Source: Raillietiella orientalis (taxonomy: Eukaryota). Taken from it: 64,000 nt of DNA. Positions 1-62,910 of this stretch are shown piece after piece. Location: assembly GCA_036172245.1 (NCBI GenBank), contig JAYWIR010000090.1:1-64000 (forward strand). The letters run 5' to 3'. The notes below the pieces were generated by a model. That model saw only the letters and a list, made by a program, of their open reading frames with translations. It made no database searches and was not told where the DNA came from. Both the position numbers and the translations under genes were made by a program. Every line of letters begins with the position of its first letter. Position 1 is the first letter of the stretch.

Positions 1-492
1 TTGGGCGCTGTGGCAGCGGCTGCCTTCAGCGCTTCTGCATCCTGGACACACCGCACTCGATTGGATGCGCCGCTTCTTCACGCGTGGCGGTCTTTCTCTT
101 GGAGCGGTCGTTGCAATCATCTGCTGCGTCCGCGCCATTGTCAGGGCCCGCCACGTATTGCAGATGCGAGCAGTCCCAACATCGGTCCCCGACGCCGCAG
201 CCTGCAACCTGGAAATGGCTGTCGGGTGGCCACATCTTGGAGCAGAAGTGAGGACGGAGATCGGCGGCATTCACCGCCGGTTCTGAGAATAGGAACGGTT
301 AGACTGTATACCCCTGTCCCCGCCCTCCCACCCAATTTATTTATTTATTGTCCCACCTCCTGCCGTTCCGAACTCTCAGTGTGCCCGGACTGCGTTCCGG
401 GAAATCTACTTCCCATTTTCTGTTCCCCTTTCCTGGGAACACAGTTCCCAGTTGATATTATAATAAACGTCCCGGCGCAACCGGGTAATAAA
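1..492 (+). mobile_element. Element A: 3' end of L1/Tx1-like non-LTR retrotransposon (ORF2 C-terminus to TGA at 286, then 3' UTR)
   Basis: Frame 2..286 reads WALWQRLPSALL...RRFF...IAGIHRRF-like, collinear with the ORF2 ends at 3404-3685 and 56700-56990(-). The 3' UTR has a hairpin at 433-451, AATAAA at 462-467 and a CCCGG-cgcaa-CCGGG hairpin at 471-485. Confidence 0.9.
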
Positions 493-1669
493 CGACGGAC
501 GCCACCGCCGGGTCGATAGCCTCCGGCATTAATTTGCCGGAGGGCTGAAAGTCGGCAGCGACGAGTGCATTTTTGCCACTCTTTTCGACCGCAGGAATGC
601 GCTTGATGACGACAGAGCAGCGTTTCATATTTTCGCGATGCGGCAAATCCTCGCTGCGTTTCGGGACATTTTTTTTTGCTTCCTTGAGGCTTTTGTGCCT
701 CTTGGATTTTACTACCTGCCATCCAGGTTCCTGGCCGTTCTCCTCGACCTTGTCCGAGTTTTCCAAGATCTCGGAGCTGACCTTCACCTGAGGCACGATA
801 GTTGTTTTTCGAGCGGCGGCTCTCTCTCGGGCTGCCTGAACTCGTCTTTTTCTCGCCGCGTGCTTCTTCGCATTCCGTGCGGACGCGACGCGGACTTCAT
901 GTTGCGGGCACACTGGAAGAGTGTGCCCGGGTTGCTTGCATTGCTTGCACTGCAAGTGGGGGCACCTTTTTTTCAGGTGAACTGAAGAGCTGCAATGCCC
1001 GCAGAAATGCGGCTTACCGACATACCAGATGTCAATGGGTTCGCCGTTGAACTCCAGCTTGTTAGGTAGGGAGCAACCCTCGCGGACCGTGATGCGCGCG
1101 GAAGCCATACCACAATTCAGGAGATCGTACTCCCAAAACGGAGTCGGCCTTTTCCACAACGCGTGGACAGTTCCAAATTTAACTAGTTCCTTTCGGACAG
1201 CCTCTTCGGCCATCCGGAAGGTGATTCCGAGGAGGTGGATCACGATAGATCTATCCTCCGTAATGGGGAGGAGCCGGCGATTCCCTAAAGGAACAGGTGT
1301 ACGGAGCAGACGCTGGGCAAGACTTGCTTCTTTGCAAATCACCTCAACGTACTGTCCACCACCTCTGATGGTCATCACCAAGAGCTCCTCCTGGGGTACT
1401 TTGAGGGAGTGCATCGCTTTCGAGAAAGCGCGTGCACTCTCAAAGGAGTAAAGGTTGCCTACCTTGTAGAGTAGAGGGGGATTGTACCCCTCCTCCAGAT
1501 AGGCTTTTAATTCAGCCGCAGCCGCTTGCATTGGCGCCGCAGCCACGGAACTTTAGCTTCTCCCTAGCGAGGGAGACGCTTCTGTTGGGGCGGATGCCCC
1601 CACATCCATTGATTCAGGAGGCGACATAGACGTCGCCCCCTCCTTAACATTGGTGGTGGTCCCAGGCAT
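493..1669 (-). pseudogene. ORF1 (RRM-like plus two CCHC zinc knuckles) of element E, one premature TAA
   Basis: ATG at 1669 is in frame with track ORF 458..1546. A single TAA at 1555-1553 falls in RS*SSVAAA (compare LSYASVAAG in element D). Knuckles are CGHCSSSVHLKKRC and CKQCKQPGHTLPVC, and there is a WQVVKSKR motif. The last residues of the track ORF (YYPVAPGRLL) are read-through into element A. Confidence 0.85.
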
Positions 1670-1779
1670 TGCTGCCTAGCCACCACCAAATCCACTGGCA
1701 CACCAAGAAAAAAAGAAAAAAAAAATAAAAGCACAAACGCTCAAGAGCGAAACAAAAACCCGTCCGCTCTCGCTCGAGG
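493..1779 (-). mobile_element. Element E: 5' part of a related non-LTR retrotransposon (5' UTR, gag-like ORF1, cut at about the ORF2 start)
   Basis: T-rich 5' UTR at about 1690-1779, followed by ORF1 with an RRM-like region and CCHC knuckles. It runs directly into the reverse complement of element A's 3' terminus. Confidence 0.85.
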
Positions 1780-3685
1780 ACTGGGACGATCTGAAAAGAT
1801 CGGTCCGCGAGTTCTGCTGGCGGTTTCCCTTGCACCAGCTTCCGCGCGGCTTCGGAGAGGGCGTAGCCAACAGCAGAGATTTTCTGCAGGCCCGCTCCTA
1901 CTCCAGGCGCGCGGACGTTGGTCGATTATCCGAGTACAAGGCCAAGGCCGAGTGCCAGGTCTGGCAGTCAGGGGCGACAGTTCTGCTCGACGACCAGGAC
2001 CGGGAATGCTCGTCTCCAGCCGCCGTGCGACGGATAGTCAGGCGCTATTACTCTTCTCTGTATGCAGAGGCACCGACGAAACGCAGCCTCTCCCGGCTGC
2101 TTCTGCCGATTGATGCACCTGTTGTAGACGAGGAGGAACGCGCGCGTCTTGATGAGCCCTTCACGGCAGAGGAAATTTCCTCGGCCATCTCGGGGCTCAA
2201 GAGACAAAAAGCGCCAGGCGAAGATGGGCTCCCCGCGGAATTCTTCCAGTGTTTTGCGGCGGAGCTCATCCCCCTGGTGCTCCAACCCTCGTCGCTGATG
2301 CGAGACGCGGGCGATGTCCCCGCCTCGTTTCGCTCAGCGAAGGTGCGTGTACTGCCGAAAGGCGGAGATTTGCGCCAACTGAACAACTGGCGTCCGATCA
2401 CATTAGTGAATTCGGACGTCAAGTTGTTCTCGAAACTTTGGGTGGCGCGGATGGGGAGGATCACGGAGTCTTTGGTAAGTCCGGAACAGACCTACGCTGC
2501 TCCCGGGCGGACCTTGGACGCGAACCTCTTGTTCATCTGCACATTGCTGCAATTGCAGCATCGCGTGGCGTTGGACCGTCGAGCGGAAGCAACGCCTTCG
2601 ATATCTTACAGATGGAGGCGCAGCTCGCAAAGCGAAACCTCGGGAGCCTTGGCGGTTGCAATCGATTTGCACAAAGCTTTCGATTGCGTGAACCAAAAGC
2701 TTCTTCTTGAGCTCTTCGAACGTCTGGGTCTCCCGGCATCCCTGTTGGCGGACTTGCGCTCCTGCTGGCGCCACGCGATTACGTCATTGTTTTCAGTGGC
2801 TGTCTCATGAACGGCGTTCCCATACGGCGGGGTATCAGGCAGGGAGACAGCTTAAACCCCCTGCTCTTCAGCGTCTTCTTTGAGTTGGTGCTGAGGGCGT
2901 ACAGGCTGACTCTGGCCAACCTGCCAATCTCCTGTCCGGGAACTCCGGCCCTGGCCACCTATGCTGACGACCTACTTCTCCTTCTGCTCCTGTCCATCCC
3001 GACGTCCAGTATCGAAGACTTCTTCGAGCTCATTCGTCGGGGATCGGGCCTGAGCGTCAACAGGACGAAATCCACCGTTGCACCGGTTGGCTCTACGTGG
3101 GAGGGGCAGTCCGACTGGATCCGCCTGGGGATCCCCACGGGCAGGTGCCTTAAGTATCTCGGCGTTCCATTGGGCGCCTTCTGTCCAGAAGAAGCGTTGT
3201 CGGACTGCCTTCACAAGACCGAGACTGCTCTGGGCCTGTTCCCCCTTCAGTGGAAACAGGACGCTTTTCTGCTGGTGCATTGGGGTCTGTATTGCAACCA
3301 GCGTGCGCACCTGGTTTCCGTGGGAGTCGCGTTCCCGAACTGTGCGAAATGCGGAGCGGCGGAATCGCTTCCGCATTTGCTATTCGAATGCGGTGCCCTC
3401 TAAGAACTGTGGCGGCGGCTGTCTTCAGCGCTCCTGCACCCCGGGCACACCGCAGTGGACTGGATGCGCCGCTTCTTCACGCGTGGAGGAGTATCTCTGG
3501 GAGCGGTCGTCGCAATCATTTGCTGCGTCCGCGCCATTGTCAGGGCCCGCCACGTATTGCAGCTGCGAGCGGTCCCAACATCGGTCGCCGACAGTGCAGC
3601 CTGCAACCTGCAACTGGCCGCCGGGTGGCCACACCTTGACGCATAAGTGAGGACGAAGATTGCCGGCATTCACAGCCGGTTCTGA
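1780..3685 (+). pseudogene. Disrupted ORF2 (reverse transcriptase plus C-terminal zinc finger) of element B
   Basis: Motifs KAPGEDG, NWRPITL, DLHKAFD, GIRQGD.L.PLLF, YADD, KYLGV and CAKC..ES..HLLFEC. Disruptions: 1-nt frameshift near 2788, in-frame deletion near 3240, TAA at 3401 and 3644. Confidence 0.9.
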
Positions 3686-3893
3686 GAATAAGAACAGCTG
3701 AAACTGCACACCCCTGTCCCAACCCGTTCACTATATTTACTTATTTATTGTCCCCTTCCTTGCGTTCCGAACCCTCAGTATGCCCGACCTGCGTGCCGGG
3801 AACCCTCCTCCCCATCTTCTGTTCCCCTTGCCTGGGAACACAGTTCCCAGATGATTTCCAATAATAAACTTCCCGGCGCAACCGGGTAACAAA
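1780..3893 (+). mobile_element. Element B: 3' part of L1/Tx1-like element (ORF2 from the linker onward, plus 3' UTR)
   Basis: Begins abruptly at actgggacgat (the WDD.KRSVREF region of element C). The 3' UTR has a hairpin at 3832-3850, AATAAA at 3863-3868 and a terminal hairpin at 3872-3886. Confidence 0.92.
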
Positions 3894-4095
3894 CGAGGAC
3901 GCTGCAGCTTTTCAGATCCTCGCTACCCAGCTGCTTTTTGCGGCGGTACGCGAGTTTTTTCTCCTGTCTTCTCTCCTTCTTACTTTTTTGGCTGGTGCCA
4001 GTCTTTTAGGAATAACGCAACGTGCTTTATTCCTAAAAGACAAAGTGTTTACCAAAGACACTTCACCAAAGTGACACTTCAACCTTTTTTTATAC
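3894..4095 (-). mobile_element. Fragment F: probable ORF1 C-terminal remnant of a related element
   Basis: Basic peptide KARCVIPKRLAPAKKVRRRE resembles the E ORF1 tail KRCSVVIKRIPAVEK. The match is short, so the call is tentative. Confidence 0.4.
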
Positions 4096-4250
4096 ATTCA
4101 CTGTTCTCTCCTTCCCGTTCCGGACTTTCTTAAAAGCTGGCCAGTGTTCCGGTGGTAATACCTTTCGAACTTTTTCTTGTTGTTCTGTATCTGTACTCAG
4201 GGGACACTGTCCCCTGATTTGTGGTTTATTTACTTTTAAATAAATGTTAA
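4096..4250 (+). mobile_element. Fragment H: 3' UTR remnant of the same family
   Basis: ccttcccgttccgga resembles the B UTR segment ccttccttgcgttccga. There is a perfect caggggac-act-gtcccctg triloop hairpin at 4198-4216 and AATAAA at 4239. Confidence 0.6.
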
Positions 4251-4350
4251 ATTAAATTCTTAAATTCATGCTAATATATTTCAAATCGTTAGGCTTTTAG
4301 AAGATAATGCTGATCCCAAAAAATATACATATGTATGAGTGACAGTTTCC

Positions 4351-7300
4351 TCATAAATGTGGAAATAGATGCTTTTGCTTGTCTAATAATTCCTCTTGAT
4401 CACATGAATTCAAAGGTACTATTTTTATACACAAAGAATGCTTAGAAGATTTTATCGACTGAAGACAACGTTGAGCTTCTTCCACTGAGATAAAATGTAA
4501 GGTCCAAAAACCACTGCTCAAAATCTAAAAATACATATTAATATGTTCAACTTCTGTAATGCCTACCAAATAGAATGATGAATATCCCTCACTCCAGTGC
4601 ACATGAAAACATTCGTTTAAATGAATGTATGCCAACAACTGTCTGGGATAAATGTCACCATCTGCACGATGGAACATAAGCAAAGAATCTGTACATACTA
4701 ACACATATGCTGGTATAGAAATCAGTGAATCACAGCACTTTTGAACACTATTGCAAGAAATACACTGATAATCACAGGAATTTTCTCTGTTTTCCCATTT
4801 TCTCATGGTACGAAGAAGTGATATTACCAATTTTTGTATCTGACAATTATTCTCACAAGCCAGTTGGATTCTTTTATCTTCGGATATCGGAATTTGTGCA
4901 GCCTGAATGCAGTTAGGGAGATGCACTGTAAACAAATTCTCAGAAATACCATTTAATGGTACTGAAAGAACAAGTTCTTGGGGATTAATGCGATAAATCT
5001 GAAAGTAAGCATTACTGCATTCACTATAAGCAACACCTTATGTGAGGGTCAACTTACTGTAAAATAAAGTGGCCCATTTCCCAGGACTTTTGAACAGCGG
5101 CGTCATTTCTATCTGTGATTCGATATAACAGATCGACTTCAAAAATTGCTTTATGACTATGACAATGATTTTCCAACCATGCCATGCTGTAGCATAAAAA
5201 CTCCATGATGTGCTGTTTTATGTGTTACAAGACTGGTTTGCAATTTAATACTTGCTTTTTGAGAATGCAAACGGTATAACGAAGCCACATAGCTTTCAAA
5301 GTCATGATCTTGAAAACTGATATGAAAGTCATGCTTTAAATACATTGCAAGGAAGACACACATAGACACCACACTGCAGCAAGTAGCCTTACATCCCACA
5401 TCACAAGAATAGGTAACCCGAGTTTTTTTAAGATGAAAAGTAACCCTTTGATAATCCAATCCAATCTAGAATAAATAGACGAAACTCGTAACATTTTTAA
5501 ACAAAGAATTCCAAGAAATGGATGAGATGCACCACTTATTCTTTCTGCTTGGCATCTGAAAGAGATTCACAAATTATTCAATAAATAAAGGATACAGGTA
5601 AAGTATAGGAATGAATAAACATTTTGTGCAGATCCATGGATCTTTCGTATTAAGGTTTCAAATAATAATGAACGAAAACAATAGGGATATTCACTTGTAT
5701 ACTAGAGTGAAACATGAAAACAAAATACGTAAAAAGAAAACAAACAGCAATTAATAAAAAAAAAATAGCACAATTGGAACAAACTAAAAACACCATTTGA
5801 GTTTGCAAGTAACTAATCATGGTTGTACATAAATGTGAAAAATTGTTACATGTATTTAATCAAACAGTTACATCAACTGCTTTTTTTTTTTCTTTGCAAG
5901 GGAAGTAAACAATTCTTTTGGATCATGAAAAAACCAATTGAAAGAATACTTTTTAACAGAAACAAAGACACATGCTTAAATAAAGTCTTTGATTTCTCTT
6001 AATGGGAGGAAGAAGCTTTATCCTATAATAAAAAAATGGGAATCACAAACTGCAATGCTCTCAACAGTCATAATATAACATAATTTCATTTTTACAGTGA
6101 TTAATGCATTTAAGAGAACTGTGAAGCACATGCGAAAATCTACACAAATTTCAAAAACAAAATCTAAAAACACACAAACAAAAGTATAAAAACAATGGCT
6201 CAAATTACTGTTACTTTCATAGAATTGGTTTGGGTCCTTTATTATTCTGTAATATTTAAACACGAAAAACTTTAATATACTTCATAACTCGCAATGATCA
6301 AAAAACAATAGATGAAATATATCATTTTATTTACACATAAATAATGCTTTACTCGTAAAATAAAAATTCAAGCCATAATGCATTAGAATTTCTTCAATCA
6401 CCTTTTAAAATTAAGCATTATTCCACAAATGCTTGACCATACTGTGATTAAATAATTTCTACAGTGAAAATGTACACACTTTGTCCGAAAATAAAAGCCA
6501 ATTATCGGTTCATTTATCAAGACAATCAATTCACAATAATTTCAATACCATGTACAACACAGTCCATCCCATATACTTTCCAGATTGTTTCAAACTCCTT
6601 AATGCTGCATATCTAAAGGGTTCTCAGTTGTTAAACTACTCATGCACCATTTCTTTTAACTTTGCTGTCATTTAAAACTCGGATCTCCATACATTACTCT
6701 TTTTTCAGTCATCAACAAAGTCACAGCAGGGTGAACTAAGTGTCTAACTTTAATCTCAACAGCAACACTAGTCCTACTACTTTTAAGCTTCTCTTCATAG
6801 ACTTTTCATTAACTTCCCCCTTGTTCTAAAGTCCTTTCTGAATACAAGATGGTTAGCTACCTTTGGCCACAAAGACCTGACTACAGCCTCACACTCCCAT
6901 CAGAAGGTGTAATTGGAAAATGGTGCCAATACTGTTACGGCTTAATTGAACAATTCAGAGTGAATGCAAGGTTGTGGTGAAACACATCTAATCTTGCCTA
7001 ATAATTAAAAAAATATAATTAGAAAGTATGAAGACTTTGGAGTGTGTTCCGACATGAGTGTAAGCACTCATGCATAAGCTGCCTTTATTTTTTGTTTGCT
7101 CCAAACTCACGACTCTTTTAAATAGTTTGCCATAGAGAGAGAATGGTACCACACTATCTTTGTTCCAACCTCATCACAAACTTCATAAGAGCAACTGCGA
7201 TAATCAAAACATTATTTCAATTATTTCACTTAGTTTGAAAAAATGTTTTATCACTTCAAATTTTTTCTAATTTTAAAATTACTTCCAATTTTTCTTTCCA

Positions 7301-29400: not shown

Positions 29401-31419
29401 ACAGATGTCAAGTTACCATCGATAAAAGACTCATATTGTTCAGATCATTACAAATTCAAGTCAGTATTCTTTGGATGAATCAAATTTCGAATCGTCACAT
29501 GCATGCATGGAACTTTGTGTCGCAAGTGCAATCTACAGTTCGATTACCTGTTTGTCTTCTACTGTGCTCTGCCGCCTTTTTTGTGCAAATGCACCCAACT
29601 CCAGTAGAATTTCGATCTAAGTTAAAGAGTCGTTAGCCGTGAGCTTTTATGATTATACTCTTCAAGTCATGTCTTCAAGTAACTGAAACAATAAATGAAA
29701 GTTTTGCTGCTCGTTATCCGAAGCAGCAATGCAACCAGCACTTGATAAATCAATTAAGCGAATTCATTTAAGCATTCATTCTGGAAATTTAGTAAAATCT
29801 TGTGCATCTAAATGCGATTTGACGAAAAAATATCGAAGTAAAAATAAATGTTTTCAAGGGTTTCGATTTTTATGTTTAGATCCCCCAGTCTTTCGTGTGC
29901 ATGAATTGCCTCACCAATAAATGTTTTCAAGGGTTTCTCAAATTGCACCATCAGGCTTCAGATTGCATCGTTGATGTGTCTCTAATCTCTGGAATCACTA
30001 ATTAAAGCTTATCTTTCAAAACTGCAATAACAAATTAAATTGACTAGCTTTTTATAAGAACAATTTGCCTTTCATATTAGCAAGTGTTCTGAGTAATCTT
30101 TAGTTCTCATGTAATTTCGTATAATTGGTTTGTCAAGAGTCTGTTAGCATCAATTTGGTTGCGATTTCAGGATTCATCATGGGACTCGGTGATCTTGTAA
30201 GTCAACTCGCTATAGAAGGAAAATTTCCGGAATTCGAGTGGCAGAGATCCGTTAAGTTTGCTTTGCTGGGAATTTGCTTGACTGTAAGACGCATTACTTT
30301 TTTGCTCTTTCATTTTCACCTCAGGGACCTGCTGTACGAACATGGTATCTCATACTGGATAAAAAACTTGTAAAGGAAGGGTCTGCAAGCACTACAATTC
30401 AAGCCTTGAGGAAAATGATGCTGGACCAGTTTTTATTTTCTCCCTGTTTTATGCTTGTGATGCTCACTGTATTGTCAGTAATAGAAACAGGTGATGGCTC
30501 TTTAGTCAGAAGAAGACTGGAGAGCGATTACATAAGTCTTTTGCTTTCCAATTATATGGTAATTTTCTTAAAAAGTTTTCAGTGTGCTTGAATTGGTTGT
30601 GATTTACGGTCATTTATGATCAGATCGGTTTGAATTTCAGAACAGTTATTTCTATGTTAAGAGCAAAAACAGTTAGCAAGGGAGTAACATCCTAACGAGA
30701 ATAAATGAATATTTATAGGTGTGTTAAAAATAAGAAAAGCATCCTACTCGAAATCTTTGGCACCCTGACAGTTTTTAATAGTGCCCAGTTGGTTGTGCAT
30801 ATTATTTTTGCGCGCCTATAGTGGATTCGAAGACAAGGCAGGCTATTTGTGTGCGTTTGTTAAGTTTTTTATGACGAAGTTATGGATTTCATCTGAACTT
30901 AGCGCTTTTTAAACTCAGAGTTTGCAATTATCTATATCTTGAATCAAACAATTTTAGAAATCAATGGCTGTGTTCTTTAATGAATTTACATCCACAACCG
31001 TTTCTGCTTTCCTGCTTCCTTTGTTCACTCCTCCTAAAGATGCGGATATTAAGTTTCTGACCTAATGTAATCTTTATTGCTTCACTGTTCATCGTCTTTT
31101 CTCCATGAGGTTTTCTTTACTGTGTTCTAGTATAAGATTCTTCACTAGCAGTGCATGTTGTGGGCGGCAGATGATGAACTCCATGTTTCAATTACCTATC
31201 AGTAACCGTAGTAATGCCTTGTCGACAGGGCACATAAACGGTCCTCTAAAAAGCTATCTTTTTCAGGTTTGGCCTGGAGTACAGTTTTGTAATTTTTACT
31301 TTGTTCCTCTGAATTACCGCATCCTGCTCTCCCAGGCTGTGGGCTTCATGTGGAATATTTATTTTGCGTGGAAGACACATCACTCTATCACTGTTCTCAA
31401 TCAGAGTTCTGCGGAATGA
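26435..31419 (+). CDS. MPV17: Mpv17/PMP22 family membrane protein (clear exons 30171-30283, 30325-30558, 31267-31419; candidate first exon 26435-26461)
   Basis: GFIMGLGDLVSQLAIE, GPAVRTWYLILD, KMMLDQFLFSP and NY.VWPGVQFCNFYFVPLNYR..WNIY. The candidate start MSLWIAFQK resembles the MPV17 N-terminus, but the linking exon was not identified. Confidence 0.8.
29843..29937. repeat. 22-bp direct repeat flanking a 51-bp insert
   Basis: aataaatgttttcaagggtttc at 29843-29864 and 29916-29937. Confidence 0.8.
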
Positions 31420-35105: not shown

Positions 35106-35425
35106 TTTCACAGGGACGTTCACTCATTAAAAATAATAATGATAGTAAAAGGTGGACATTCAAAGGTGGAGCTGAGTTTCCACCAGCATCTTGCGAAGAC
35201 GGGCATACCAGGAGGGAGGAGGGTCTGCACTGACAAATGAACAAATGAAAAATGAAAGAATCCCTTTGAATAAATAACATGAACAAAAAATGCGAAGACG
35301 GGGAAGGTTCACCAGGTTCAATTCCTTTTGACTTTCAGTCCTTGCAGGATTCAGACGACGTCTTTCTTCGCTCATAAGGTCAAGCGAGATCACGTTGCCG
35401 TTCTAGGTCTTTCAAAGATGGATAA
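35106..35425 (-). mobile_element. Degenerate 3' end/3' UTR of the family
   Basis: Minus-strand agtgaacgtccctgtg (35124-35109) resembles AATAAACGTCCCGGCG. The UTR is pyrimidine-rich and contains gtatgcccg, as in B. Confidence 0.5.
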
Positions 35426-35429
35426 AGGG

Positions 35430-36934
35430 AGGAGTGCTTCGCACCGCTACTGACACAATTCCATCGGCAAGACCGACTACCTCAATGCTGGATGTGCGCA
35501 ACATGGTTACCTCATCCGGCCGGCGTGAGTCCATCTCGGATGGCGAGACAACAGCACGATTTTTTCTGGAGTTCCACTTGGCTGGAGGTGGTTGCATTCC
35601 GAGGTCCAGAAGCAGGCTTCGCACTCTAGTAAAAGGTGAGGGATGGATCTGCACCTCAGGAAGTTTGAAGAATATTCCTTTTCCTCTCTCCCCTGCCAGT
35701 CAGGTGATCACGACGTATTCTGCACATGATTCGCACCATCGTCCTCTGAATGCAAAGCCGAAAAGTTGAGAAGGGATGGGATGGCTGTCTTTCGCCCCAG
35801 CAATCTCTTCCTGATTTGTCTGCATTGGGTCTTAGGTCGCATAATCAGTCCAATTGTGAACCAACGTATCGTCCTTCTCATGAGCACGAAAGCGATCGCA
35901 AAAGAGCGTCTACTCTTCCTACCTCTGCTGGATCATACGAACACTCGATAACAAGAGAAGATGCAGCAGCTGATGGCGTCGAAAGAGCAAAAGTCTTCCA
36001 TAGCAAATCCAGAAGATCATAATGTTTCTGGCATGCTGCGGGCTTGTGCATCCCCGAAGCTTACGTGGTATGCCCTGAATGATGCCTTACCGAGCAATCC
36101 CTTCTTGAGACATCCTCGCAGTAGAGGCGTGATGTCACTGCTCGTTGCACTAGGAACCCTAGTTTACCAAAAAGGATCTAGTAGGAAACCTGTGATCTCG
36201 AGGAGTTTTGTGGAGAACCCTCGAGGAATTCTTGCCATCTCTGAATACCTAGGGAAGTTTGATTGGACAAAGTCGTGTGCGCCAGTCGGAACCATTCCTT
36301 AATTGTGCAATTAGCAAAATGGTTTACCACCCATGTCTCAGAAGAATCCCCGACAAAGAGGTGCAGAAGAAGGAGCAGAATTACGAAAACATGAGGATGC
36401 TCTCTGATGCATGCCATCACACAGGTGTGGATGGCACGGCACTCTAGTGTCACGCAGAAAAGTAGGGGTCGAGATCGAATAAGTGAGAGCTCCAATTGCA
36501 GGATCAGGAGCAGTTACCTGCCAGTAAATAAAGGAGAACTCCACAATTTGAGAAACTTTGTGATCACAAAGTCAGTTCTCAAAGGGACTCTTGGGCGGTT
36601 GAACATCACTCTTCAGTCCTTTAGCATTATTTCGCTGGAGGCGGCGTAGGTGAAAAACTTCTACATTCTGCAGCAGAGCGAAGAGCCCGGTAACCACAAG
36701 CAGTTTATTGATACCCACGAAGCGCGGTGTATTGGTACATGCTTGGGTGGAGCTGCCTTTCCTTCAGCAAAGGACTCAATGAACCATCGGTGAGTGTAAC
36801 TGGGGGGCGAGAACGTCCACTATGAAGCATTCGGGAGAATATGCATATCTTTAAGTGCTCCATGACAAGATCCTCCTGAAGTCCGCTCTCCTTGACAACT
36901 CTTTCCCTCCCCAAGTTGTGGTTCTGCACTCACC
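35430..36934 (+). mobile_element. Degenerate ORF2 5' half (endonuclease to about RT domain 3)
   Basis: Peptides in the expected order: SMLDVRNMV..GRR, GMAVFRPSNL...GRII, EDHN, TGVDG, YLPVNKGELHNLRNF (compare LLPKGGDLRQLNNW) and KILLKSALLDNSFP. Confidence 0.65.
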
Positions 36935-37970
36935 TTTCCCACCGGGGAGTTTATTCCATAAAAGAACAAAGAAACAAATTGGAAATCAGATTCTCAATGG
37001 AAACAGCAAGCTCATGAGGAAGGATAACCTATTGGTCATAGAGAATTTTCGGAGTGGGAGGGAAGGGGACAATAAATAAATAAAAAAGGAGGAAGGATAG
37101 AGGGGAAGGGTCCTCCTCCTTCCTTTCTCGAAGCGAAGCAGATTGCTGGAGATTTCCCTTACAGCTTCTTCCCAATAGAGCCACCTCTCTTCAGTTATCC
37201 TATAAATCATGCATGTCCACCAAAGGCTCACTGTATCATCCCGTCTGTCCGAACATACACTTCCTGAAAATCAAACAGAAAGATAAAAATGCATCTTTAG
37301 AGGGGATTGATTGACTACCACTCCTTTATGAAAGAAAGGAGCTATTATCCTGGAAAGAAGTCAGGTAGCGTTCTGTCTTCTGCAAGCAACCGGGTGTCCA
37401 TGAAAGAGCATGTCATGGATTCTCTTTTTCTCAAGAAAAAATAAAATCCAATAAACCTCCAGCGAAGGCTCAATGGGGTCCATAGGAAACTTTCAGGAAC
37501 GATTCTTCAATCAAAGCCTTTCGAATGAGAAAAATCTCCAGCTTCTGTTTAGTGATCAAAGCATTCAAATCTTCTAGGAATTCTTCCAGAAAGACGTGTC
37601 AAAACCAAAACGGAAGCATCACCTGATGACCTGCTTTTTTCGGTGTCTCCGATGTGAAGTTCATGGATGCTCAATAGAGAGGGCAGAGAATACATCAGCT
37701 GGGAGACCCGGAGGAAGCACTGAATAGCGTCAATCGAACCATGAAGCAATGGAAAAAAATCCCACCTCTCAGTGTCTAATGATTATCGTTTATTCATTCT
37801 CTGATCACCTTTATCACTCAACTGTGAACACGTGTAGGAACGATCATGACCTTTGTAATTTGATCCCCATACCAGCAAATAGGCACTCTCAGAACTCAGA
37901 ACTCTCAGCACTCTCAAACATCCAACCTGGCTGAGAAACGCTCTCATGAATTCATTCATGTATCACTGGA
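36935..37970 (-). mobile_element. Degenerate ORF2 3' part and 3' UTR of the family
   Basis: Minus-strand AATAAACTCCCCGG (36955-36942). The UTR segment ttatttattgtccccttcc is shared with B. C-terminal ERWLYWEEAVREISSNLLRF compares with RWSHLRDEVKEDIAGIHRRF in element C. Confidence 0.7.
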
Positions 37971-47010: not shown

Positions 47011-49559
47011 ATGTGGAATTTTTTCAAAGACATCACATCATTAAGTAGTAATTATGAATTCATTAGTAATAGTCCAGAAAAATGTGATGTGTACATTTGG
47101 AAATGTCAAAAAGGGAGAAAAAAGGTATCAGAATGTGATTAAATATATTTATCCTGTATCCCATTAGCATTCAGAAGAAATCGTTTCAGTATTTACAATA
47201 AATCTGAAGACAGCTGGCAAAACTCAAATAGATTTGGCACGAAATGCAATTCGTAATGCCAAAATCTTGAAGCATCCTAGTGTAATTACCTTTGTGGATA
47301 GCCAGGAAGTAAGTTTCTAATGCACAACATTTGCTTCATGTCTGTATCTAGACAGACTCCACCTTACACATGATAACAGAATATGTTCAGCCTCTATCCA
47401 TTTATCTACAACAAAATGAAAAGATGAGTGCAGTTCAGAAAAATGGAAGCATTTCGTGGGGATTACATCAGGTGCTGGTCAGTTGATCTGCAACAAAGGT
47501 CCCATAGTCAACTGTGTAGATCTGTAGAAAGGTCTTAGCTTTCTCCATGATCAGGCTACTATGATCCACTTGAGATTGCAAGTGGATTCCATTTTTGTGA
47601 ATCAAGCAGGAGAATGGAAAATAGGAGGTCTGGAACATCTATGTCGCATGTCAGATGTACAAGTTTTGCCACCTACTGATGTGTATACATGCCCAGAATT
47701 GAGAAACTTTTCTACTTCAAATAAGTTGACTTGGGCTGTTGATATGTGGGGACTTGGATGTCTCCTGTGGGAACTCTTCAATGGCCAGCTGCAGACATCT
47801 TCACAGTTAGATTCTATCAGGAAGGTAATAATTAGGGATGACATATTAGGGATTAAATGCTTTAGATCCCTACATCTGTGGTTCCATTATACAAGTCATT
47901 AGTATCATCACAAGTCACTAAGCGCCCTAGTGCAAAGAAATTGTTAAGCACTCACCTTAATAATTTCTTGTGCAATGATCTTGTGAATACTCTGTTGTTT
48001 CTTGAAGAAGTACAATTGAAGGACAGTCATGAAATCAGTCGCTTCCTTTCTGCCTTGCCTCAAATGCTTGATGCCTTCCCCACAGATCTATGTTGTTACA
48101 AAGTGCTACCTCTACTTGTTAATGCATTGGATTATAGCAATGCTGGATCAGCAGTTCTCACTCCTTTGCTGCAAGTACACATTTGGGATCCCAGTGGGCT
48201 CCTATCTGTTGCAGATAGGCAAACAGCTTGATAAAGAAGAATACCAGCGTATGGTGCTTCCCTCAGTAGTGAAGTTATTTGCATCACCTGACCGTGCTAC
48301 TCGAATGAAGTTACTTCAGCAGCTAGAATTATTTATTCCCCATCTGCAGTCTTCACTAGTGAATGATAAAATCTTCCAGCAAGTGGCACAGGGTTTTCAT
48401 GATAGTAATGCAGCAATTCGAGAAGCTACTGTGAAGGTGATCTTGGTCTTGCTTTGTAATTCAAAATGATGCTCTCATAGGCAGTGCTTCCTTTGGCTCC
48501 CAAGCTTAATCATAAGAATTTGAATGTGGAACTGCTTAGACATTTGGCTCGACTACAATCTCGGGATGAACAGGTGAATTGCATGTGTGTGAATAACTGG
48601 ACATCGTTATATCCAGGGTGGCATCCGCACCAATACTACGATTTGCTTAGGAAAAATTGCTTGCCACTTGCATCCTAGCACTCGTTGTAATATTCTTATT
48701 CCTGCCTTTATACGTGCCATGAAAGATCCTTTCCCTCCAGCAAGACTTGCAGGTCTGCAAATACGTCATCATTATAATTGGTTTAACCTTTTTAATGGAT
48801 GCAGGAATATTGGCTCTTATAGTCACTCAAAATTACTATATGCTGGAGGAAGTTGCTACTCGTATCCTACCAGCCCTCTGTTGTTTGACTGTAGATATTG
48901 ATAAATCAGTCAGGGATCAGGTTTTTCGGACCATCAAGGGATTTGTTGCCAAATTAGAAAAAGTTTCTGAAGATCCTGATCTCAAGGATGTCATGGGTAG
49001 ATTGAGAGTATCTTGTTATATATATTTAGCTGTAGAAAAGGATGTCCATGCTGCTGGTGGAACTGTACTTGATGTTTCCAGCTGGGCTTCTTGGGCCCTT
49101 GGTGCTCTCACTTCAACATTTTACAAAAGTGATCGAAGCAGCAAAACTTCTCAAAAAGAACATGTGGAGAGTCCTGAACAAGGAGAAAACAAAAATGAAT
49201 CGAGAGAGGAAGAATCCGTTCAAGGGAACCTGAGTGTGAGAACTAGCAGCTTAATGCATATGCATTGTCTGTTTAGGAAGGTGTTTCCGGAGTGAATTTG
49301 GAAGACTTGGACAGCTGGGAAAATGAGGAATGGGGAAGTCTGGAAGAGCAAACAGAAGAACCTTCTTATAGCCATGCAAGTGGTGTACAAGATCCTAGGT
49401 GGGGACTTATGCAGAAAGCATCTGTCATGAATTCAAGAAAGGATCCAATTAATCAGGTCGTTTTGAATTCATTTTTTTTGTTTTGAATATGTAGTTTAGG
49501 CTGCTGATGGTTGGGATGAGTGGCCTGATGAAGAGTTGGGCAGTTCTTTGAAGAAATGA
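47011..49559 (+). CDS. SCYL1: N-terminal kinase-like protein SCYL1 (pseudokinase plus HEAT repeats), multi-exon
   Basis: MWNFFKD..., [75 protein letters not shown] and [12 protein letters not shown] at 49557-49559. Confidence 0.95.
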
Positions 49560-50099
49560 TGCATCCCTGCATATCCCTCAAAATGCTACAAAACATGCTT
49601 GACCAAAACTGTCATCAGGTAAACATTAAATACGATGTAGCGCATTTTGTAGGAAGTGTTGTCAGTTTTGATATTGCATTAATACAGCAACACATCTGCA
49701 TTACTAGCATTCACGTACATTTATCTTTATATTGAACGCAATTATGCATTTTCTTTCGTGTTTTTATGTAAAAGAATTGTTGAGAAAATATATGTGCTGA
49801 TATATCAATCAGGGCAGAATTTCCCATCCAAATTATTTTGTAGACCAGTGAAATACCTCAATTTTTTTTTCAGACTGTTAAGATTATGTACTACACACAT
49901 AGTGTATGTGTATATTCTTGAATGTATGTGTATATTCTTCAATAAGGAGAGTAAAACTTTTATTCAAACAATTTGGTTCGTTTCATTTATTGCTGAAATA
50001 ATTTATTTCCGCATTAAGAAATTGTGAATACACACATAAGTGGTATGCAAGCATCTGTGACGAGTTGCAGAACTTTATCCCTCGGTTACTCTGGGGCAC

Positions 50100-50870
50100 T
50101 TATTCATGAAGTGAACAAACATGTTGAGAACGAAGTTCCCGAAAGCAAACAAAAAGTTCAAGGGAGAGTTTCATCGACACTCAAATCGGTCATTAAAGAA
50201 GTCGGAAACGGGAGGCAGAGGAAGATCTGCTCGATCGCAGGAGTGGAGAAACTTTGCGCATAAACCAATGCTACTCCGCTGGGCGGAAACTGTGAGTGTT
50301 CCAGAAAGGCACTTGTTTCTCCCCGTCTTACGCCTGGACAGTTCCGTGCTCCACTCAGATGGCAGGATTACGTGGTGCTTCCCTTGCAGTGGTTCCTCTT
50401 GCTACGAACGTATGCAACATGCGTTCACCGTCGGTTGTGGGAGCAGCTGGTTTCGGCACTTTTGCGCAGTAATAATTTGCAAGCTGAATTTCTGCGTCGG
50501 TTCTTCTCGAGCGAGGGTCTCACTCCTGCCGCAGTGATCACGACTTTGTGCAGTGTGGCATCATCAAGGCCTCCTACTCGCAAGAGTACACCAGTGGCAA
50601 CGTGTAGCCATCTGCATAGCATTCTCTCTCATGAAGAATACTTGTAGGTGGCTCGATGTATGCAAAGAATTCATCAAGGAGATCGCTAACATCTTGCGGA
50701 GGTTGTGACGCCGGAGCAATGATTTCGATGTTCCTATCCCCCACCCACCAGCTATTTCTTTCTGTCTTTCACCCTCCAATGCTGCAGACAGTTTCTTCGG
50801 CCAACCCGCGTGTTGGGGTGCTCCGCAAGTTCAACAAGGTTTTTTTTTTGTTTTTGATTCACAAGAAACC
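50100..50870 (+). mobile_element. Solitary degenerate 3' fragment of the L1/Tx1-like family
   Basis: KICSIAGVEKL, LLRWAETVSVP...LDSSV, LWEQLVSALL...FLRRFFSSEG and KEIANILRRL are collinear with the element C ORF2 C-terminus; several frameshifts. Confidence 0.8.
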
Positions 50871-55790: not shown

Positions 55791-56326
55791 ACGGCAAGAA
55801 GGTTGTGAGGCGGCCGGCGGAAGGCAAAGGCCCGGAAACATCCGAGTCCGAAGCGGAAGCCGGAAGCGCTCCCTCCAGTACCCTCCCGAAAAGGAAGGCG
55901 GGGCGGAAGTCCCAGAACCCTGGGCGCGTCGTTCCCCCTCAGGTGGAGGAGGTAATGCCCTCAGAGAACGAGGAGGCAATGTCCGCGATGTCACGCGACT
56001 CCTCGGTGGAAAAAAGAACACCGCCGGAGGATACTAGTTTACAATGTCCAGGAATGCACGAGACTCCTTTAGCCGAAGCGATGCCCGTCGACCAGGACAA
56101 CGACCATCCGCCTCCCGAACAGGAGATGGAAACAAAATCGCCACCAACATCAACAGAGTGATGCGTGGAATCGCCTCTTGCCGGCAATCAAGCATAGCCT
56201 GTTGGAATGTCAACGGGCTGCCTGACGAAGGCAAGAGGCGCGGGATGGCCGACACCCTGCGACCTTTCGACCTGGCTCTTCTCCAAGAGACGCATGCGCT
56301 CAGAGGAGAGGACGTCCAGGAGATTT
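55790..56326 (+). mobile_element. Element G: ORF1 tail and first ~55 codons of ORF2, cut by the 3' end of element C
   Basis: The ORF1 tail ends in TGA at 56161, overlapping the ATG of MRGIASCRQSSIACWNVNGL...ALLQETH. Confidence 0.85.
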
Positions 56327-56699
56327 CTCACCCGGTCACGCCGGGGCGTTTATTTCATATAAATAGAAATAGAAATATATATATATATATAATATTTCAT
56401 ATAAATAGAAATAAATATATAAAATAAACCAGTTGGGGACAATGCCCCCAACCGACGACGGCACAAGTATCAAGAGAATATTGCTGGCACGCAGGCCAGA
56501 ATTACACAGAACGGTTTGTGGGAACTGGGAAAACAAACAAACAAATACAAAATAAAAAGAAATCAACGGGGACAAGGGTCTTTGGGATCGCTCTGGTTCT
56601 TTCCGGTATAATAGTAATGGCACCGGTATTTTAGCAGAGCGAGCGGGGAAGGGGTATGGGTGGGCTTCAGGACGTAGTGGTCACCGGATTAAGCCGTTC

Positions 56700-59600
56700 C
56701 TAAAAGTGTGTAAACCGGCGGTGGATGCCGGCAATGTCCTCTTTGACCTCGTCACGAAGATGAGACCACCTAGCAGCGTTTTTCATGGATTCCGCTGCAA
56801 ACCGGTGAGCCTCCCTTCGCTGCGCTGACAACTCCAGGGCGTAGCGGGCCTCCACGATGGCGCGAATGCAACACATGGTTGCGACAATCGCGCCTACCGA
56901 AAATCCATTGCTCCTGAAGAAGCGCCGCAGCACATCAATGGCAGTGCCTCCCTGCGGCAGGATGGCTGAAATCAGCCTTCGCCACAGTTCACGGAGGTCA
57001 CCGCAGTCCATCAAGAGGTGCGGAAAAGACTCGATCTCACCGCACCTCAAACAGTTTGGCGGAGCAGCTCCCCCGGAAACGATGCTTCGCTGCCGATTAC
57101 AGTGGAAGCCCCAGTGTAAAAAGAGCAGCACATCTTGTTTCCACTTTAAGGGGAACACGGAGCTGTCCAAACAAACGGGGGGGACCACTATCACTTCGGG
57201 GGGTACACTTAAATGTTCACTCCACCGAAGCAGGCCATTCGCCCGATTACGAGGAGTGGCAGCTTAGAACAGCTCCTTTGTCGTCCAGCAGCCGAGGAGC
57301 TTACTGACTCCCGCTATTGAGCAGAACTCCCATTTCGCCGGTAGGCAACTGTCGTTGCTTGCCCTGAGGGCAGACAGCGCTGCGGCGAGCGGTGTGGCGG
57401 CCAGACGATCCGACATCTTCTTGTCCTGCATGACTTCGTCCATTGGATGACTGAGGAGAAGTCGCAGGCGCCGAAGATCTTCCGGGCGCGTTCCTTCGGA
57501 AGCTGCCCACGATGAAAAAGATTCCTGCCGCCATGCATTAATGTTCATGGGGCGGCAGGAGATCCAGCTTTGGGCTTCTAGCAGTGAGGACAGCTGCCTC
57601 AGCGGGAAGCCAAACCCTATTATGGTGTGCCGAAAGTGGGGCAGCAACGAAAGCAGTCCCTCGCTTCTTGTGCAGTGCCTCAGTATAAGTCGTGCGGGTA
57701 AGCACCACGGCGTACACCACAGCTTGGCACACAGCCGCAGCATTCGAAACTGCACCTGCAGCTCGATGCTTTTTAAGTCTAGGGTGCCCAAGCCTGCATC
57801 CTGACGTGGCGCCACCAAGTCTTTAAGTCTTACGCGGGATCTTGCAGCGCCCCACAATGTTTTGCGTAGAAGGTGCTGCGCCCAGACTTTGACTTCCTGG
57901 GGGGGTGGACAAACAAAAAACAGGGGACGGAGGAGGGAAGCAACGAAGGTGTTCCAGATGCTGGCTCGTTCCGGCAAGACGAACTCGCCTCCTGAGAACG
58001 GGCCAAGTGCACGCTCTGCCTTCCGAAGGCAGTCCGACCACGCTTCTGAGATGCAGAAGTCGCCCAACGGCACGCCAAGGTACCTTAGATACCTGCCCGT
58101 GGGGATCCCCAGGCGGATCCAGTCGGACTGCCCCTCCAAAGTCGCTCCAACCGGAACAACCAGGCTCTTGCTCCTGTTGACGCTCACGCCCGCACCGCGA
58201 CGGATCAACTCAAAGAAATCTTCAAGCGACGCCGCCGGGGTGGACATGGGCAACAGAAGAAGCAGGTCGTCGGCATAGGCTGCCACGGCCGGCGTACCTG
58301 AAGAGGAGCTCGGCAGGTTGGCTAGCGTCAGCCTGTAAGCCTCCAGAACCATTTCAAAATAGATGCTAAAGAGCAGCGGCCTCAAGCTATCGCCCTGCCT
58401 AATTCCTCGCCTAACCGGCACGCCGTACACGTGACAGCCACTGGAAACAATGGATGTAATCGCGTGGTGCCAGCAGGAGCGCAAGTACGCCAACAGGGAT
58501 GCCGGGAGGCCCAGACGTTCCAAGAGCTCAAGAAGAAGCTTTTGGTTCACGCAATCGAAAGCTTTGTGCAAATCGACTGCAACCGCCAAGGCTCCCGGTG
58601 TTTCCCTTTGCGACCCGCGCCTCCGTCGGTGAGAGATCGAAGGCGTCGCTTCCGAACGACGATCCACCGCCACACGATGCTGCAATTGCAGCCATGTGCG
58701 GATGAACAAGAGATTCGCGTCCATGGACCGCCCAGGAACAGCGTACGTCTGCTCCGGACTTACCAAGGATTCCGCGATCCTACCCATCCGCGCCACCCAA
58801 AGTTTCGAGAACAACTTGACGTCCGAATTCACTAATGTGATCGGACGCCAGTTGTTCAGTTGGCGCAAATCTCCGCCTTTCGGCAGTAGACGCACCTTCG
58901 CTGAGCGAAACGAGGCGGGGACATCGCGCGAGTCTCGCATCAGCGACGAGAGCTGGAGCACCAGAGGGATGAGCTCCGCCGCAAAACACTGAAAGAATTC
59001 CGCGGGGAGCCCATCTTCGCCTGGCTCTTTTCGTCTCTTGAGTCCCGAGATGGCCGAGGAAATTTCCTCTGCCGTGAAGGGCTCATCCAGACGCGCGCGT
59101 TCCTCCTCGTCTACAACACGTGCATCGATCGGCAGAAGCAGCTCGGAGAGACTGCATACCGTTGGTGCCTCTGCATACAGAGAAGAGTAATAGCGCCTGA
59201 CTATCCGTCGCACGTCGGCTGGAGCCGAGCATTCCCGGTCCTGGTCGTCGAGCAGAACTGTCGCCCCTGACTGCCAGACCTGGCGCTCGGCCTTGGCCTT
59301 GTACTCGGATAATCGACCAACGTCCGCGCGCCTGGAGTAAGAGCGGGCCTGCAGAAAATCTCTGCTGTTGGCTACACCCTCTCCGAAGCCGCGCGGAAGC
59401 TGGTGCAAGGGAAACCGGCAGCAAAACTCGCGGACCGATCTTTTCACATCGTCCCAGTTAGCGAGCTCACTTATGGCGAAGCCGCGGAGGTCCTGGAGAA
59501 GATGCTCCGCCGCATCCGGGTGACTTAGCCAGTCTGCCGGCATCCTCCAAACATAGTTTGGAGGCCCCTTGCCTGGCGGGAGCAACTCGAACTCGAGCCT

Positions 59601-60269
59601 GTTGTGGTCTGAAAGCACGGACGGCATGGGAAATCTCCGACCCACTCGAGAGAGCAAGTGTTCATCGAGGAATACATGGTCCGGTGATGTCGCCATAACA
59701 GGGTCCTTAGCGAACAAGCTGCACGCGTGCACGGACGCGTACATCTCTTCCACTAGCAACTTTTCCCTTTTGTGTGCGCTATTCCCGGTCAGCAGTTGGA
59801 CGTTTAAGTCCCCCGCAATGAAATGCGCCACAGTAGGGTGAGAACGAGTGAGCCACTGGCTCTGAACGGTACCGAAGAACTCAATCCTTTCGGCCCATCG
59901 TCCAGCACCGCTCGGCGCGTACACGTTGGTTACGACAAGGTCGGTCGAGTCGGACCACTTGAGTACAAGCTGTCCCACTCGGCCTTTCGTGTCGAAACGA
60001 ACGCTGCGCACCGCTCCCGCCAAAGTTCCTCGCACGAGGAAAGCGACGCCGCACGTACGTGCAGCGCCGTACCTATAAAGTAGCGTTCCGCCTGCGCGCC
60101 GTTCGATTTCGGCAGCCTGCTCTCCAGAGATGCTGTGAATCTCCTGCAGGAGCGTCAAGTCGAAGGCGCGCAGAGCGTCAGCCACTAGTCGCCTCTTCTC
60201 CTCGTGTTGGAGCCCGTTGACGTTCCAAGACGTTACGGCAACACGACGAGAACACGCGATTGCCCTCAT
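56700..60269 (-). pseudogene. ORF2 of element C: APE endonuclease, reverse transcriptase, C-terminal zinc finger (~1190 codons, one premature TAA)
   Basis: SWNVNG, LQE, NVYAP, GDLN, PDH, SDH; PGEDG, WRPITL, DLHKAFD, RQGD, YADD, RYLGV; CLRC..ES..HLLMDC. Track ORFs 57264..60272 and 56700..57194 share one frame, separated by TAA at 57266-57264. Confidence 0.93.
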
Positions 60270-60961
60270 CACGGCTGGGAAAGCGAGGCCGTGGTGTTCG
60301 CCTCACCCGGCGAGCGGGCAGTAAGTAGCACGACGGGCTGGAGGGCGCGGTCGCCACCGGCCTCAACTGTGCTGCACGTAATCGGGTGCTCCTTCCCGGG
60401 TGCAGAACCTGTGGGTTCCGGGGTGAGCACTCGCCGTTCCGCAGCGAATGTGTCACGCCTCAGGACTTTAGCCCTGCGGGCGCTCGCTCCCGCGTGAGTA
60501 ACGCGTCGTTCAGCGGCGCTATCGGACTCCTTGTCGGAGTCTGATGCTCGCACGATCGACGTGCGCTTGCATCCGTCCGATTGCACCGGAATGGTCTTCT
60601 CGGCCGTCACAGAAGCGGACTTGCAAGCGTTGAAGGCGCTGGCTTTTTCCTTGGAAGAGGTACAAGCCGCGCGTGTTTTCGTATTCACGCGAGTGCTTTT
60701 TCCTTTGGAAGAGTTCAGGGATGGATGTTGCGAAGCCTTTTTTGGAGATTTTTCTTTCCTCCTCCCCACAACCTTCCATTCGCCTTTGCGATTTTCGGAG
60801 GCTTCCGCGACGATAGTTGCGGAAACCTCCGGGATTTTCGCTGCTTTCTCTGGGGGCGTTGCTTTCGCTACGCTTTTGAAAGGCGGCAACGGAGTCACCT
60901 TCTTGACAGTCGGGAGATCGCTCCTCTCCTGCCGAGTCGGTGAACTTGCTTCGCGGCTCAA
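60269..60961 (-). pseudogene. C-terminal half of ORF1 of element C
   Basis: Low-complexity basic region with GEWKVVGRRK. Its TGA overlaps the ORF2 ATG (TGATG). Confidence 0.75.
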
Positions 60962-61110
60962 AGTCTTGTGCGCTCGACAACATAATCAGTTAATTGTGCT
61001 CGTGTGTGCCCGGAGAGGGGAAGTTTTCCAGACGAAACTACAAAAGAAGCGGCGAGGAGATCGCGGCAAAAGACCTGCAGTGGTCCCGTGCAGCAAGACC
61101 AGCTGCGAGG

Positions 61111-62897: not shown

Positions 62898-62910
62898 GTC
62901 TTCCCCTTTT

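Follow-up and report, generated by a model that had tools for sequence, protein, structure and literature searches.

Long interspersed nuclear elements (LINEs) of the L1 group that settle among their own kind are known from green algae. Zepp and Zepp-like elements are described as targeting existing copies, which gives rise to GC-rich nested clusters of mostly 5'-truncated elements, and these clusters develop into arrays of 3' ends in tandem, one for each chromosome, at putative centromeres (PMC8226300, PMC3446292). Another form of target choice is found in the LINEs of the Tx1 and R1 clades with an apurinic/apyrimidinic (APE) endonuclease, which use defined sites in ribosomal, small nuclear, and transfer RNA (tRNA) genes, microsatellites, telomeres, and transposons (PMC4640811). 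Here we describe two clusters of L1-like LINEs at the ends of a 64-kb stretch of Raillietiella orientalis DNA (assembly GCA_036172245.1, contig JAYWIR010000090.1, positions 1 to 64,000; hereafter the window). In both clusters, the exact 3' terminus of one copy is joined to the antisense strand of another copy, close to the start of its second open reading frame (ORF2). The analysis drew on the window, on one public DNA run (X1, short contigs, word share 0.16), no RNA run with matching sequence being listed, and on the literature.

GC content is 28-40% over most of the window, and GC-rich blocks (54-59%) are present at positions 1-4000 and 56000-64000. The pieces making up the two clusters, designated below by single letters, are the following (UTR, untranslated region).

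A, 1-494, forward strand: 3' part of an L1-like LINE, with the last 94 ORF2 codons and the 3' UTR.
E, 497 to about 1772, reverse strand: 5' part of a LINE, with a short 5' UTR, ORF1, and ORF2 codons 1 to about 12.
B, 1772-3895, forward strand: 5'-truncated LINE, from ORF2 residue 280 (numbered on C) to the 3' end, matching Pfam RVT_1.
F, 3897-4086, no strand assigned: 190 nt matched to no element or strand.
H, 4087-4246, forward strand: probably an old 3' UTR from the same group of LINEs, now enriched in AT and followed by AT-rich host DNA.
G, 55800-56322, forward strand: internal LINE fragment that starts in the ORF1 tail and reaches about ORF2 codon 54, with host DNA on its left.
C, 56323-60985, reverse strand: near-complete LINE, with its 3' UTR and terminus at about 56323-56325.
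D, 60995-64000, forward strand: 5' part of a LINE, with 5' UTR, ORF1, and the first 405 ORF2 codons, running off the window.

The junction between A and E lies at 494/497. The C-terminal ORF2 tail of A is open until the stop codon at 284-286 and is followed by a 3' UTR that forms two hairpins and, at its end, a stem-loop; this UTR ends in ..AATAAACG at 494, positions 495-496 being ambiguous. In a self-comparison of the window, A and the tail of B are 85% identical over 498 nt (8-502 to 3407-3902), and the two have a common precise end (..AAYAAACG) beyond which they diverge completely; the tails of A and C are 50% identical (tblastn). Facing this terminus on the other strand are ORF2 codons 1 to about 12 of E (at about 497-530), which read M-P-E-A-I-D-P-A-V-A-S-V and align with the first ORF2 residues of C, G, and D. 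E is cut directly before the W of the conserved WNVNG endonuclease motif. An exact 3' terminus thus meets an antisense ORF2 start, as an earlier reading of this DNA from its sequence alone (hereafter the original prediction) had proposed for this junction.

The right cluster contains an independent, mirror-image recurrence of the same arrangement. The exact 3' terminus of C, which lies on the reverse strand, abuts G on the forward strand, and G breaks off near ORF2 codon 54, where it ends next to the palindrome GGACGTCC (56310-56317). G is not a rearranged part of C, because C holds its own ORF2 start, nor was it copied from the RNA of C, because the two are only 57% identical over C ORF2 residues 11-66 (tblastn, E-value 1e-13); a template switch within a single RNA was rejected as the origin of this junction on the same figure. 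In both clusters, then, an exact 3' terminus is joined to the antisense strand of another LINE, that of A to E at about codon 12 and that of C to G at about codon 54, and the target pieces derive from copies or sub-lineages other than the inserted ones.

The class of these elements is indicated mainly by C, whose ORF2 consists of 1012 and 187 codons separated by one in-frame stop. It matches Pfam Exo_endo_phos (E-value 1.5e-10, residues 25-233) and RVT_1 (E-value 1.4e-17), that is, an APE endonuclease followed by a reverse transcriptase, and its best solved relative is human L1 ORF2p (E-value 1e-41), R2 reaching only 1e-15. The zf-RVT match on C (E-value 0.0058, 17.7 bits) is under the 27.5-bit cut-off, and a Cys-X2-Cys...His-X4-Cys pattern is visible in the tails of C and B. 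Upstream of ORF2 is an ORF1 with CCHC knuckles, for which ORF1b of D matches Pfam zf-CCHC (E-value 1.7e-5). The closest public protein to C is unnamed and 58% identical, the remainder being at most 30% identical, and a protein-guided locus search returned 78 loci, each with at most 38% identity over more than 40 residues. On these grounds, the elements represent a previously undescribed L1-group LINE lineage.

Two further junctions are head-to-head. At the first, E on the reverse strand meets B on the forward strand. Positions 1772-3241 of B are 88% identical to 59466-57996 of C on the opposite strand (self-comparison), and B begins at ORF2 residue 280, in agreement with the proposal that the 5' end of E abuts the middle of a B ORF2; the boundary itself is bracketed only within 1707-1781, the homology of B and C beginning at 1772, with three mismatches at 1777-1779, and one X1 contig having a loose end at 1707. 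E has a 364-codon open frame (458-1552) for ORF1, bounded by one in-frame stop (1553-1555), beyond which lies a likely start ATG at about 1670. The E ORF1 carries CCHC knuckles, is 23% identical to that of D (tblastn, E-value 3e-11; D ORF1b against 893-1057, E-value 3e-6), and taken alone has no Pfam match above cut-off. At the second head-to-head junction, C on the reverse strand faces D on the forward strand; C has lost its 5' part up to about 60985, a point within the ORF1 tail some 700 nt upstream of ORF2. The D endonuclease is 27% identical to that of C and thus belongs to a different lineage; D matches both zf-CCHC and Exo_endo_phos, and its ORF1 has three CCHC knuckles and one stop. The N-terminal part of that ORF1 (61201-61416) is a GC-rich tandem repeat (periods of 27, 36, and 48 nt; 2-3.5 copies) encoding a repeated Pro/Ala/Val-rich motif.

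The LINE-in-LINE sample thus comprises two robust 3' junctions (A|E and G|C) and two head-to-head junctions (E|B and C|D), and in 4/4 of these robust LINE-LINE junctions the partners lie on opposite strands (p = 1/16). The targets of the two 3' junctions were cut just before the W codon in E and about 39 codons after it in G. These positions are about 118 nt apart on an element of about 5.5-6 kb, for which the chance of such closeness is about 4%. In addition, the 14-nt flanks of the GC-rich 3' termini of A, B, and C have exactly one 5-mer in common, GGACG (3/3), read as CGTCC on the strand that is nicked, the sense strand of the target. Any 5-mer was common to three random LINE flanks with p = 0.0017 (200,000 draws; post hoc). 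Occurrence of GGACG in one random flank has a probability of 0.017, and the B|F junction provides an independent test once the motif has been derived from the A and C flanks. Sense-strand CGTCC is rare, with 20 occurrences per 12,451 nt of LINE DNA, of which E has 2 and F and G have 1 each. The copies of the motif in G and E are target-derived, as they lie within codons homologous to C. A chance origin of the recurrence of a 3' terminus at an antisense ORF2 start in two clusters, together with a common pentamer, is unlikely.

To account for these observations, we give about an even chance to a nested LINE island that arose by successive target-primed insertions into older LINEs, with a real but modest target preference. 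Antisense nesting of LINE copies is the simplest reading of the robust junctions, and to this extent the "Russian-doll" arrangement put forward earlier is retained, although the five-deep stack that it implied is not established. In such an island of dead or dying L1-like copies, a newer copy would land in an older LINE in the opposite orientation via target-primed reverse transcription. The endonuclease would nick the coding strand of the resident LINE a few bases 3' of CGTCC, and the resulting 3' OH would pair with the last one or two bases of the incoming RNA (1-2 nt of microhomology) and prime cDNA synthesis. The conserved 3' hairpins and terminal stem-loop of the incoming RNA presumably recruit the reverse transcriptase, and the cDNA would often be full length, as in E and D, or 5'-truncated, as in B and C. 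In a genome of about 31% GC, GC-rich motifs would be concentrated in LINE DNA of 56-59% GC, so that LINEs could serve as landing pads for one another. An antisense bias would result if the motif context around the ORF1/ORF2 boundary were strand-specific; the bias in strand and position, if real, would need something beyond the pentamer, and the outcome would be a preference, not strict site specificity. In a stronger version, which is speculative and in our opinion unlikely, the endonuclease would favor the coding strands of sister or rival LINEs and nick them just 3' of CGTCC near the ORF1/ORF2 boundary; antisense copies would decapitate older ORF2s, and the elements would thereby gain both a safe harbor in a compact AT-rich genome and an edge in competition between lineages.

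The likeness to Zepp, in a comparison of descriptions, would lie in GC-rich clusters of L1-group LINEs probably nested in copies of their group. The differences are that the host here is an arthropod, as the SCYL1-like frame described below indicates, that the robust junctions are all antisense, that two of them lie at the ORF1/ORF2 boundary, and that solitary copies occur as well; instead of tandem arrays of 3' ends in the same orientation, all four robust junctions join opposite strands. Tx1L is located in the DNA transposon Tx1D. What Keno, Tx1L, and other Tx1/R1-clade elements would have in common with the present ones is an APE endonuclease that chooses a sequence in a multicopy target. 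Theirs is, however, one precise site in another repeat or RNA gene, whereas here the insertions lie at about codon 12, at about codon 54, and at F, and the three GC-rich 3' junctions differ in position instead of falling on one fixed nucleotide of a defined repeat. Moreover, only a pentamer is common to the present junctions, the targets are related LINEs, and the motif is absent from three of the six 3' flanks examined. Within the extent of the literature surveyed, no description of antisense-specific LINE self-nesting was found. Self-nesting LINEs are already known from Zepp; the present case would differ in the arthropod host, the antisense orientation, the ORF1/ORF2-boundary target in related LINEs, and the looseness of the preference. 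If the preference is real, animal LINEs would use related LINEs as landing sites, under a rule of orientation and position unlike that of algal tandem Zepp arrays or single-site Tx1/R1 elements. A short endonuclease motif combined with the contrast in base composition between element and host would then lead to self-targeting without a dedicated target gene, and the idea arises that insertion disables competitors. If it is not real, the locus is an ordinary nested repeat island whose practical use is confined to annotation, for which it offers LINEs of several lineages, one mosaic copy, and a 3' UTR structure that is conserved.

This last possibility, in which LINEs nest without specificity in tolerated, gene-poor repeat islands and the strand, breakpoint, and pentamer patterns are small-sample coincidences, is somewhat unlikely. 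A number of observations count in its favor or against a target preference. The sample is tiny, and orientation taken by itself reaches only p = 1/16. The discontinuities within B, described below, are colinear and on the same strand and were excluded from the count of element junctions; counting them as sense junctions would weaken the orientation tally. The targets of the 5' junctions are scattered (B residue 280, the C ORF1 tail, and the H 3' UTR if F is counted). CGTCC has no overall strand bias, its 20 sense occurrences being matched by 21 antisense ones, so that the pentamer alone cannot explain the orientation. Its distance to the nick varies (0-2, 0-1, and 5-7 nt), and there is no sense CGTCC near the ORF1/ORF2 boundary of C or D. 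Older 3' UTR copies of the same type lie in host-like DNA without GGACG, which makes targeting at most a preference and not a strict rule; the motif was found in 0/3 of the flanks of the older termini (H, about 36.93 kb, and about 50.07 kb), a fourth older copy (50.27-50.85 kb) having been left out of this test as its terminus is not placeable. Both clusters run off the window, so that mirror halves and target-site duplications are beyond view. There are also several sub-lineages among the elements, and "self" must be read as "related LINEs".

F has to be added to these points. Its GC content is about 52% up to 4000 and 34% beyond, and its first bases, GGACG, adjoin the B terminus. At the nucleotide level, F shows no significant similarity to any of the LINE pieces on either strand (z at most 3.0). 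At the protein level, the best of 60 comparisons, between F on the reverse strand and the E ORF1 tail, gave a non-significant z of 2.9 (uncorrected p = 0.015). F as an antisense ORF1 tail or as a sense ORF2 tail was considered, and neither was significant; F as a known RNA gene was rejected on the lack of any match in Rfam and tRNA searches. Hence, F is not demonstrably a LINE. Unspecific nesting, on the other hand, does not predict a 5-mer common to three flanks (p = 0.0017), two antisense insertions only about 118 nt apart in an element of some 6 kb (a chance of about 4% if position alone is considered), or the independent presence of the motif at B|F (p = 0.017). Ordinary nested clusters likewise have younger copies in older ones, but they would lead one to expect neither recurrent antisense ORF2-start targets nor a common pentamer.

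With F set apart, the alternating series proposed for the left cluster is reduced. Its pieces A(+), E(-), and B(+) are solid and H(+) is probable, and the rule that forward pieces are 3' parts and reverse pieces 5' parts applies to A, B, and E, and probably to H, F having no assigned strand. The strand flips at A|E and at E|B stand, whereas the last two junctions involve the strandless F; the 3' end of B is indeed a precise terminus, though F as the element it meets is unproven, and in the absence of significant LINE similarity in F the claim that the fragments abut without intervening host DNA is not established. Nor could the pieces be assigned to one family, as E overlaps neither A nor B, which precludes comparison, and B itself is a mosaic. 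The self-targeting, orientation-specific mode suggested by the original prediction gains from the second cluster and from the common GGACG, and has to be softened to a preference at most, for related LINEs.

The mosaic structure of B is seen in its identity to C, which is about 94% at 1772-2771, about 78% at 2772-3241, and 66% after an internal, in-frame loss of about 277 codons (about 830 nt) at about 3237, at a short microhomology. A frameshift near 2711-2810 lies at the first identity change-point, and an in-frame stop is present at 3401-3403. These features suggest that B was produced by recombination or template switching between LINE sub-lineages, together with a deletion. In the left cluster as a whole, decay increases from A, whose tail is open, through E, with a single stop, to B, where a stop is joined by a frameshift and a deletion; this series is consistent with the inner copies being younger.

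As to the order of events in the left cluster, the insertion of A into E would be combined with one of two relations between E and B: either E inserted into B, as the "Russian-doll" arrangement requires, or B is an ordinary 5'-truncated insertion located at the 5' edge of E. A heptamer, CGAGGAC, is found at 1775-1781 and 3894-3900, spanning both ends of B (p = 0.018 for random pairs of 22-nt windows), and is suggestive of a target-site duplication of B. This weighs against the "Russian-doll" arrangement, since it would reverse the order of E and B: the 5' edge of E and F would have been contiguous before B arrived, and A and B would both have inserted antisense into the E locus. The heptamer is not decisive because part of it coincides with bases that the A and B termini share (..AAACGA). 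The insertion of A into E stands under either order.

An alternative that we regard as improbable is that the head-to-head pairs, E(-)/B(+), C(-)/D(+), and a third one near 50 kb, are inverted pairs made in single integrations, by twin priming, by two RNAs on both nicked strands, or by template switching. In L1 twin priming, an inverted 5' segment is joined directly to a direct 3' segment. E(-)|B(+) has this geometry, the window holds three head-to-head pairs (E|B, C|D, and 50117-50234(-)|50271-50705(+)), and the mosaic B suggests that template switching occurs in this LINE group. Twin priming, however, takes place on one RNA and is expected to leave adjacent breakpoints, whereas E reaches only about ORF2 codon 12 and B does not begin until residue 280, a gap of about 270 codons. 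C and D, being different lineages (27% identity), were rejected as a twin-priming pair, and G, at 57% identity, was not made from the RNA of C. Twin priming would also put the 3' terminus beside target DNA and leaves the join to an antisense ORF2 start unexplained, since here the preceding 3' terminus adjoins the inverted piece. Around the 50-kb pair, there is no target-site duplication longer than 6 nt, the best common word being 6 nt.

Run X1 gave 55 short contigs that match 1-6000 at 90-100% likeness; coverage is patchy over 1-3800 and absent over 4001-5600, and on the host flank only 5743-5893 is covered. At this level of likeness, the LINE sequences of the left cluster appear to be multi-copy. 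Among the matches listed, which comprise 8 of the 57 pieces and 6 of the 23 loose ends, no X1 contig bridges junctions 494/497 or 3895/3897. A 372-nt contig aligns to 1622-1802 with four differences and two gaps; it extends only 30 nt beyond 1772, and 193 nt at its start have no fit in the window. Some or all of the join between the E 5' UTR and B may occur at more than one locus. An assembly artefact, in which repeat-induced or chimeric joins created the strand flips, is very improbable. In its favor, assembly is difficult in repeat clusters such as those at the two ends of the window, and the junctions have no read-level confirmation, the one listed contig over the E/B boundary being that just described. 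Mis-joins, however, use same-strand shared sequence or perfect fold-backs, whereas the joins seen here are between exact termini and antisense coding sequence unrelated to them. This type of junction is found twice, each time with other elements, and neighboring pieces are not mutual reverse complements and form no fold-back palindromes, which makes misassembly unlikely on structural grounds.

The 3' UTRs of A, B, and C, and these only, underlie a covariance model (R1) with two hairpins and compensatory change in 4/14 pairs. It matches A at 340-458 and B at 3740-3857, where the pattern of the terminal 3' stem-loop follows at 465-488 and 3866-3889, respectively; this pattern has three matches in the window and none in the metagenome contigs. 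The C 3' UTR contains an AT-rich, microsatellite-like insertion (ATATAA-type, about 12 units) at 56357-56428, in the interval between the second hairpin and the terminal stem-loop, and A and B are without it. Because of its R1 match (4087-4220 on the forward strand, 27.4 bits, E-value 1.9e-4), in which both hairpins are retained, H is probably a decayed LINE 3' UTR. F contains a near-perfect 41-nt palindrome (88%) at 4001-4041.

Elsewhere in the window, an old LINE tail with its 3' UTR is present at 36972-37270 on the reverse strand (R1 match at 36972-37080, E-value 1e-5), with a terminus near 36930. Ahead of this copy, a weak ORF1-like match (E-value 0.009, z = 5.7) lies at 35106-35222 on the forward strand. 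The whole, from 35106 to 37270, may be another arrangement of the G|C type; no endonuclease coding sequence was detected on the forward strand next to the terminus near 36.9 kb. The 50-kb pair (50073-50850) consists of two short, 5'-truncated LINE tails arranged head-to-head, with their 3' ends outward and host-like DNA on the flanks, namely a 3' UTR-like piece at 50117-50234 on the reverse strand (R1, E-value 0.005) and an ORF2 tail at 50271-50705 on the forward strand (tblastn, E-value 6e-9). Among the host sequences, one exon-like frame, at 30256-30591, may encode a protein resembling Mpv17/PMP22-type membrane proteins. A second, at 48723-49295, is 53-56% identical to N-terminal kinase-like (SCYL1) proteins of insects.

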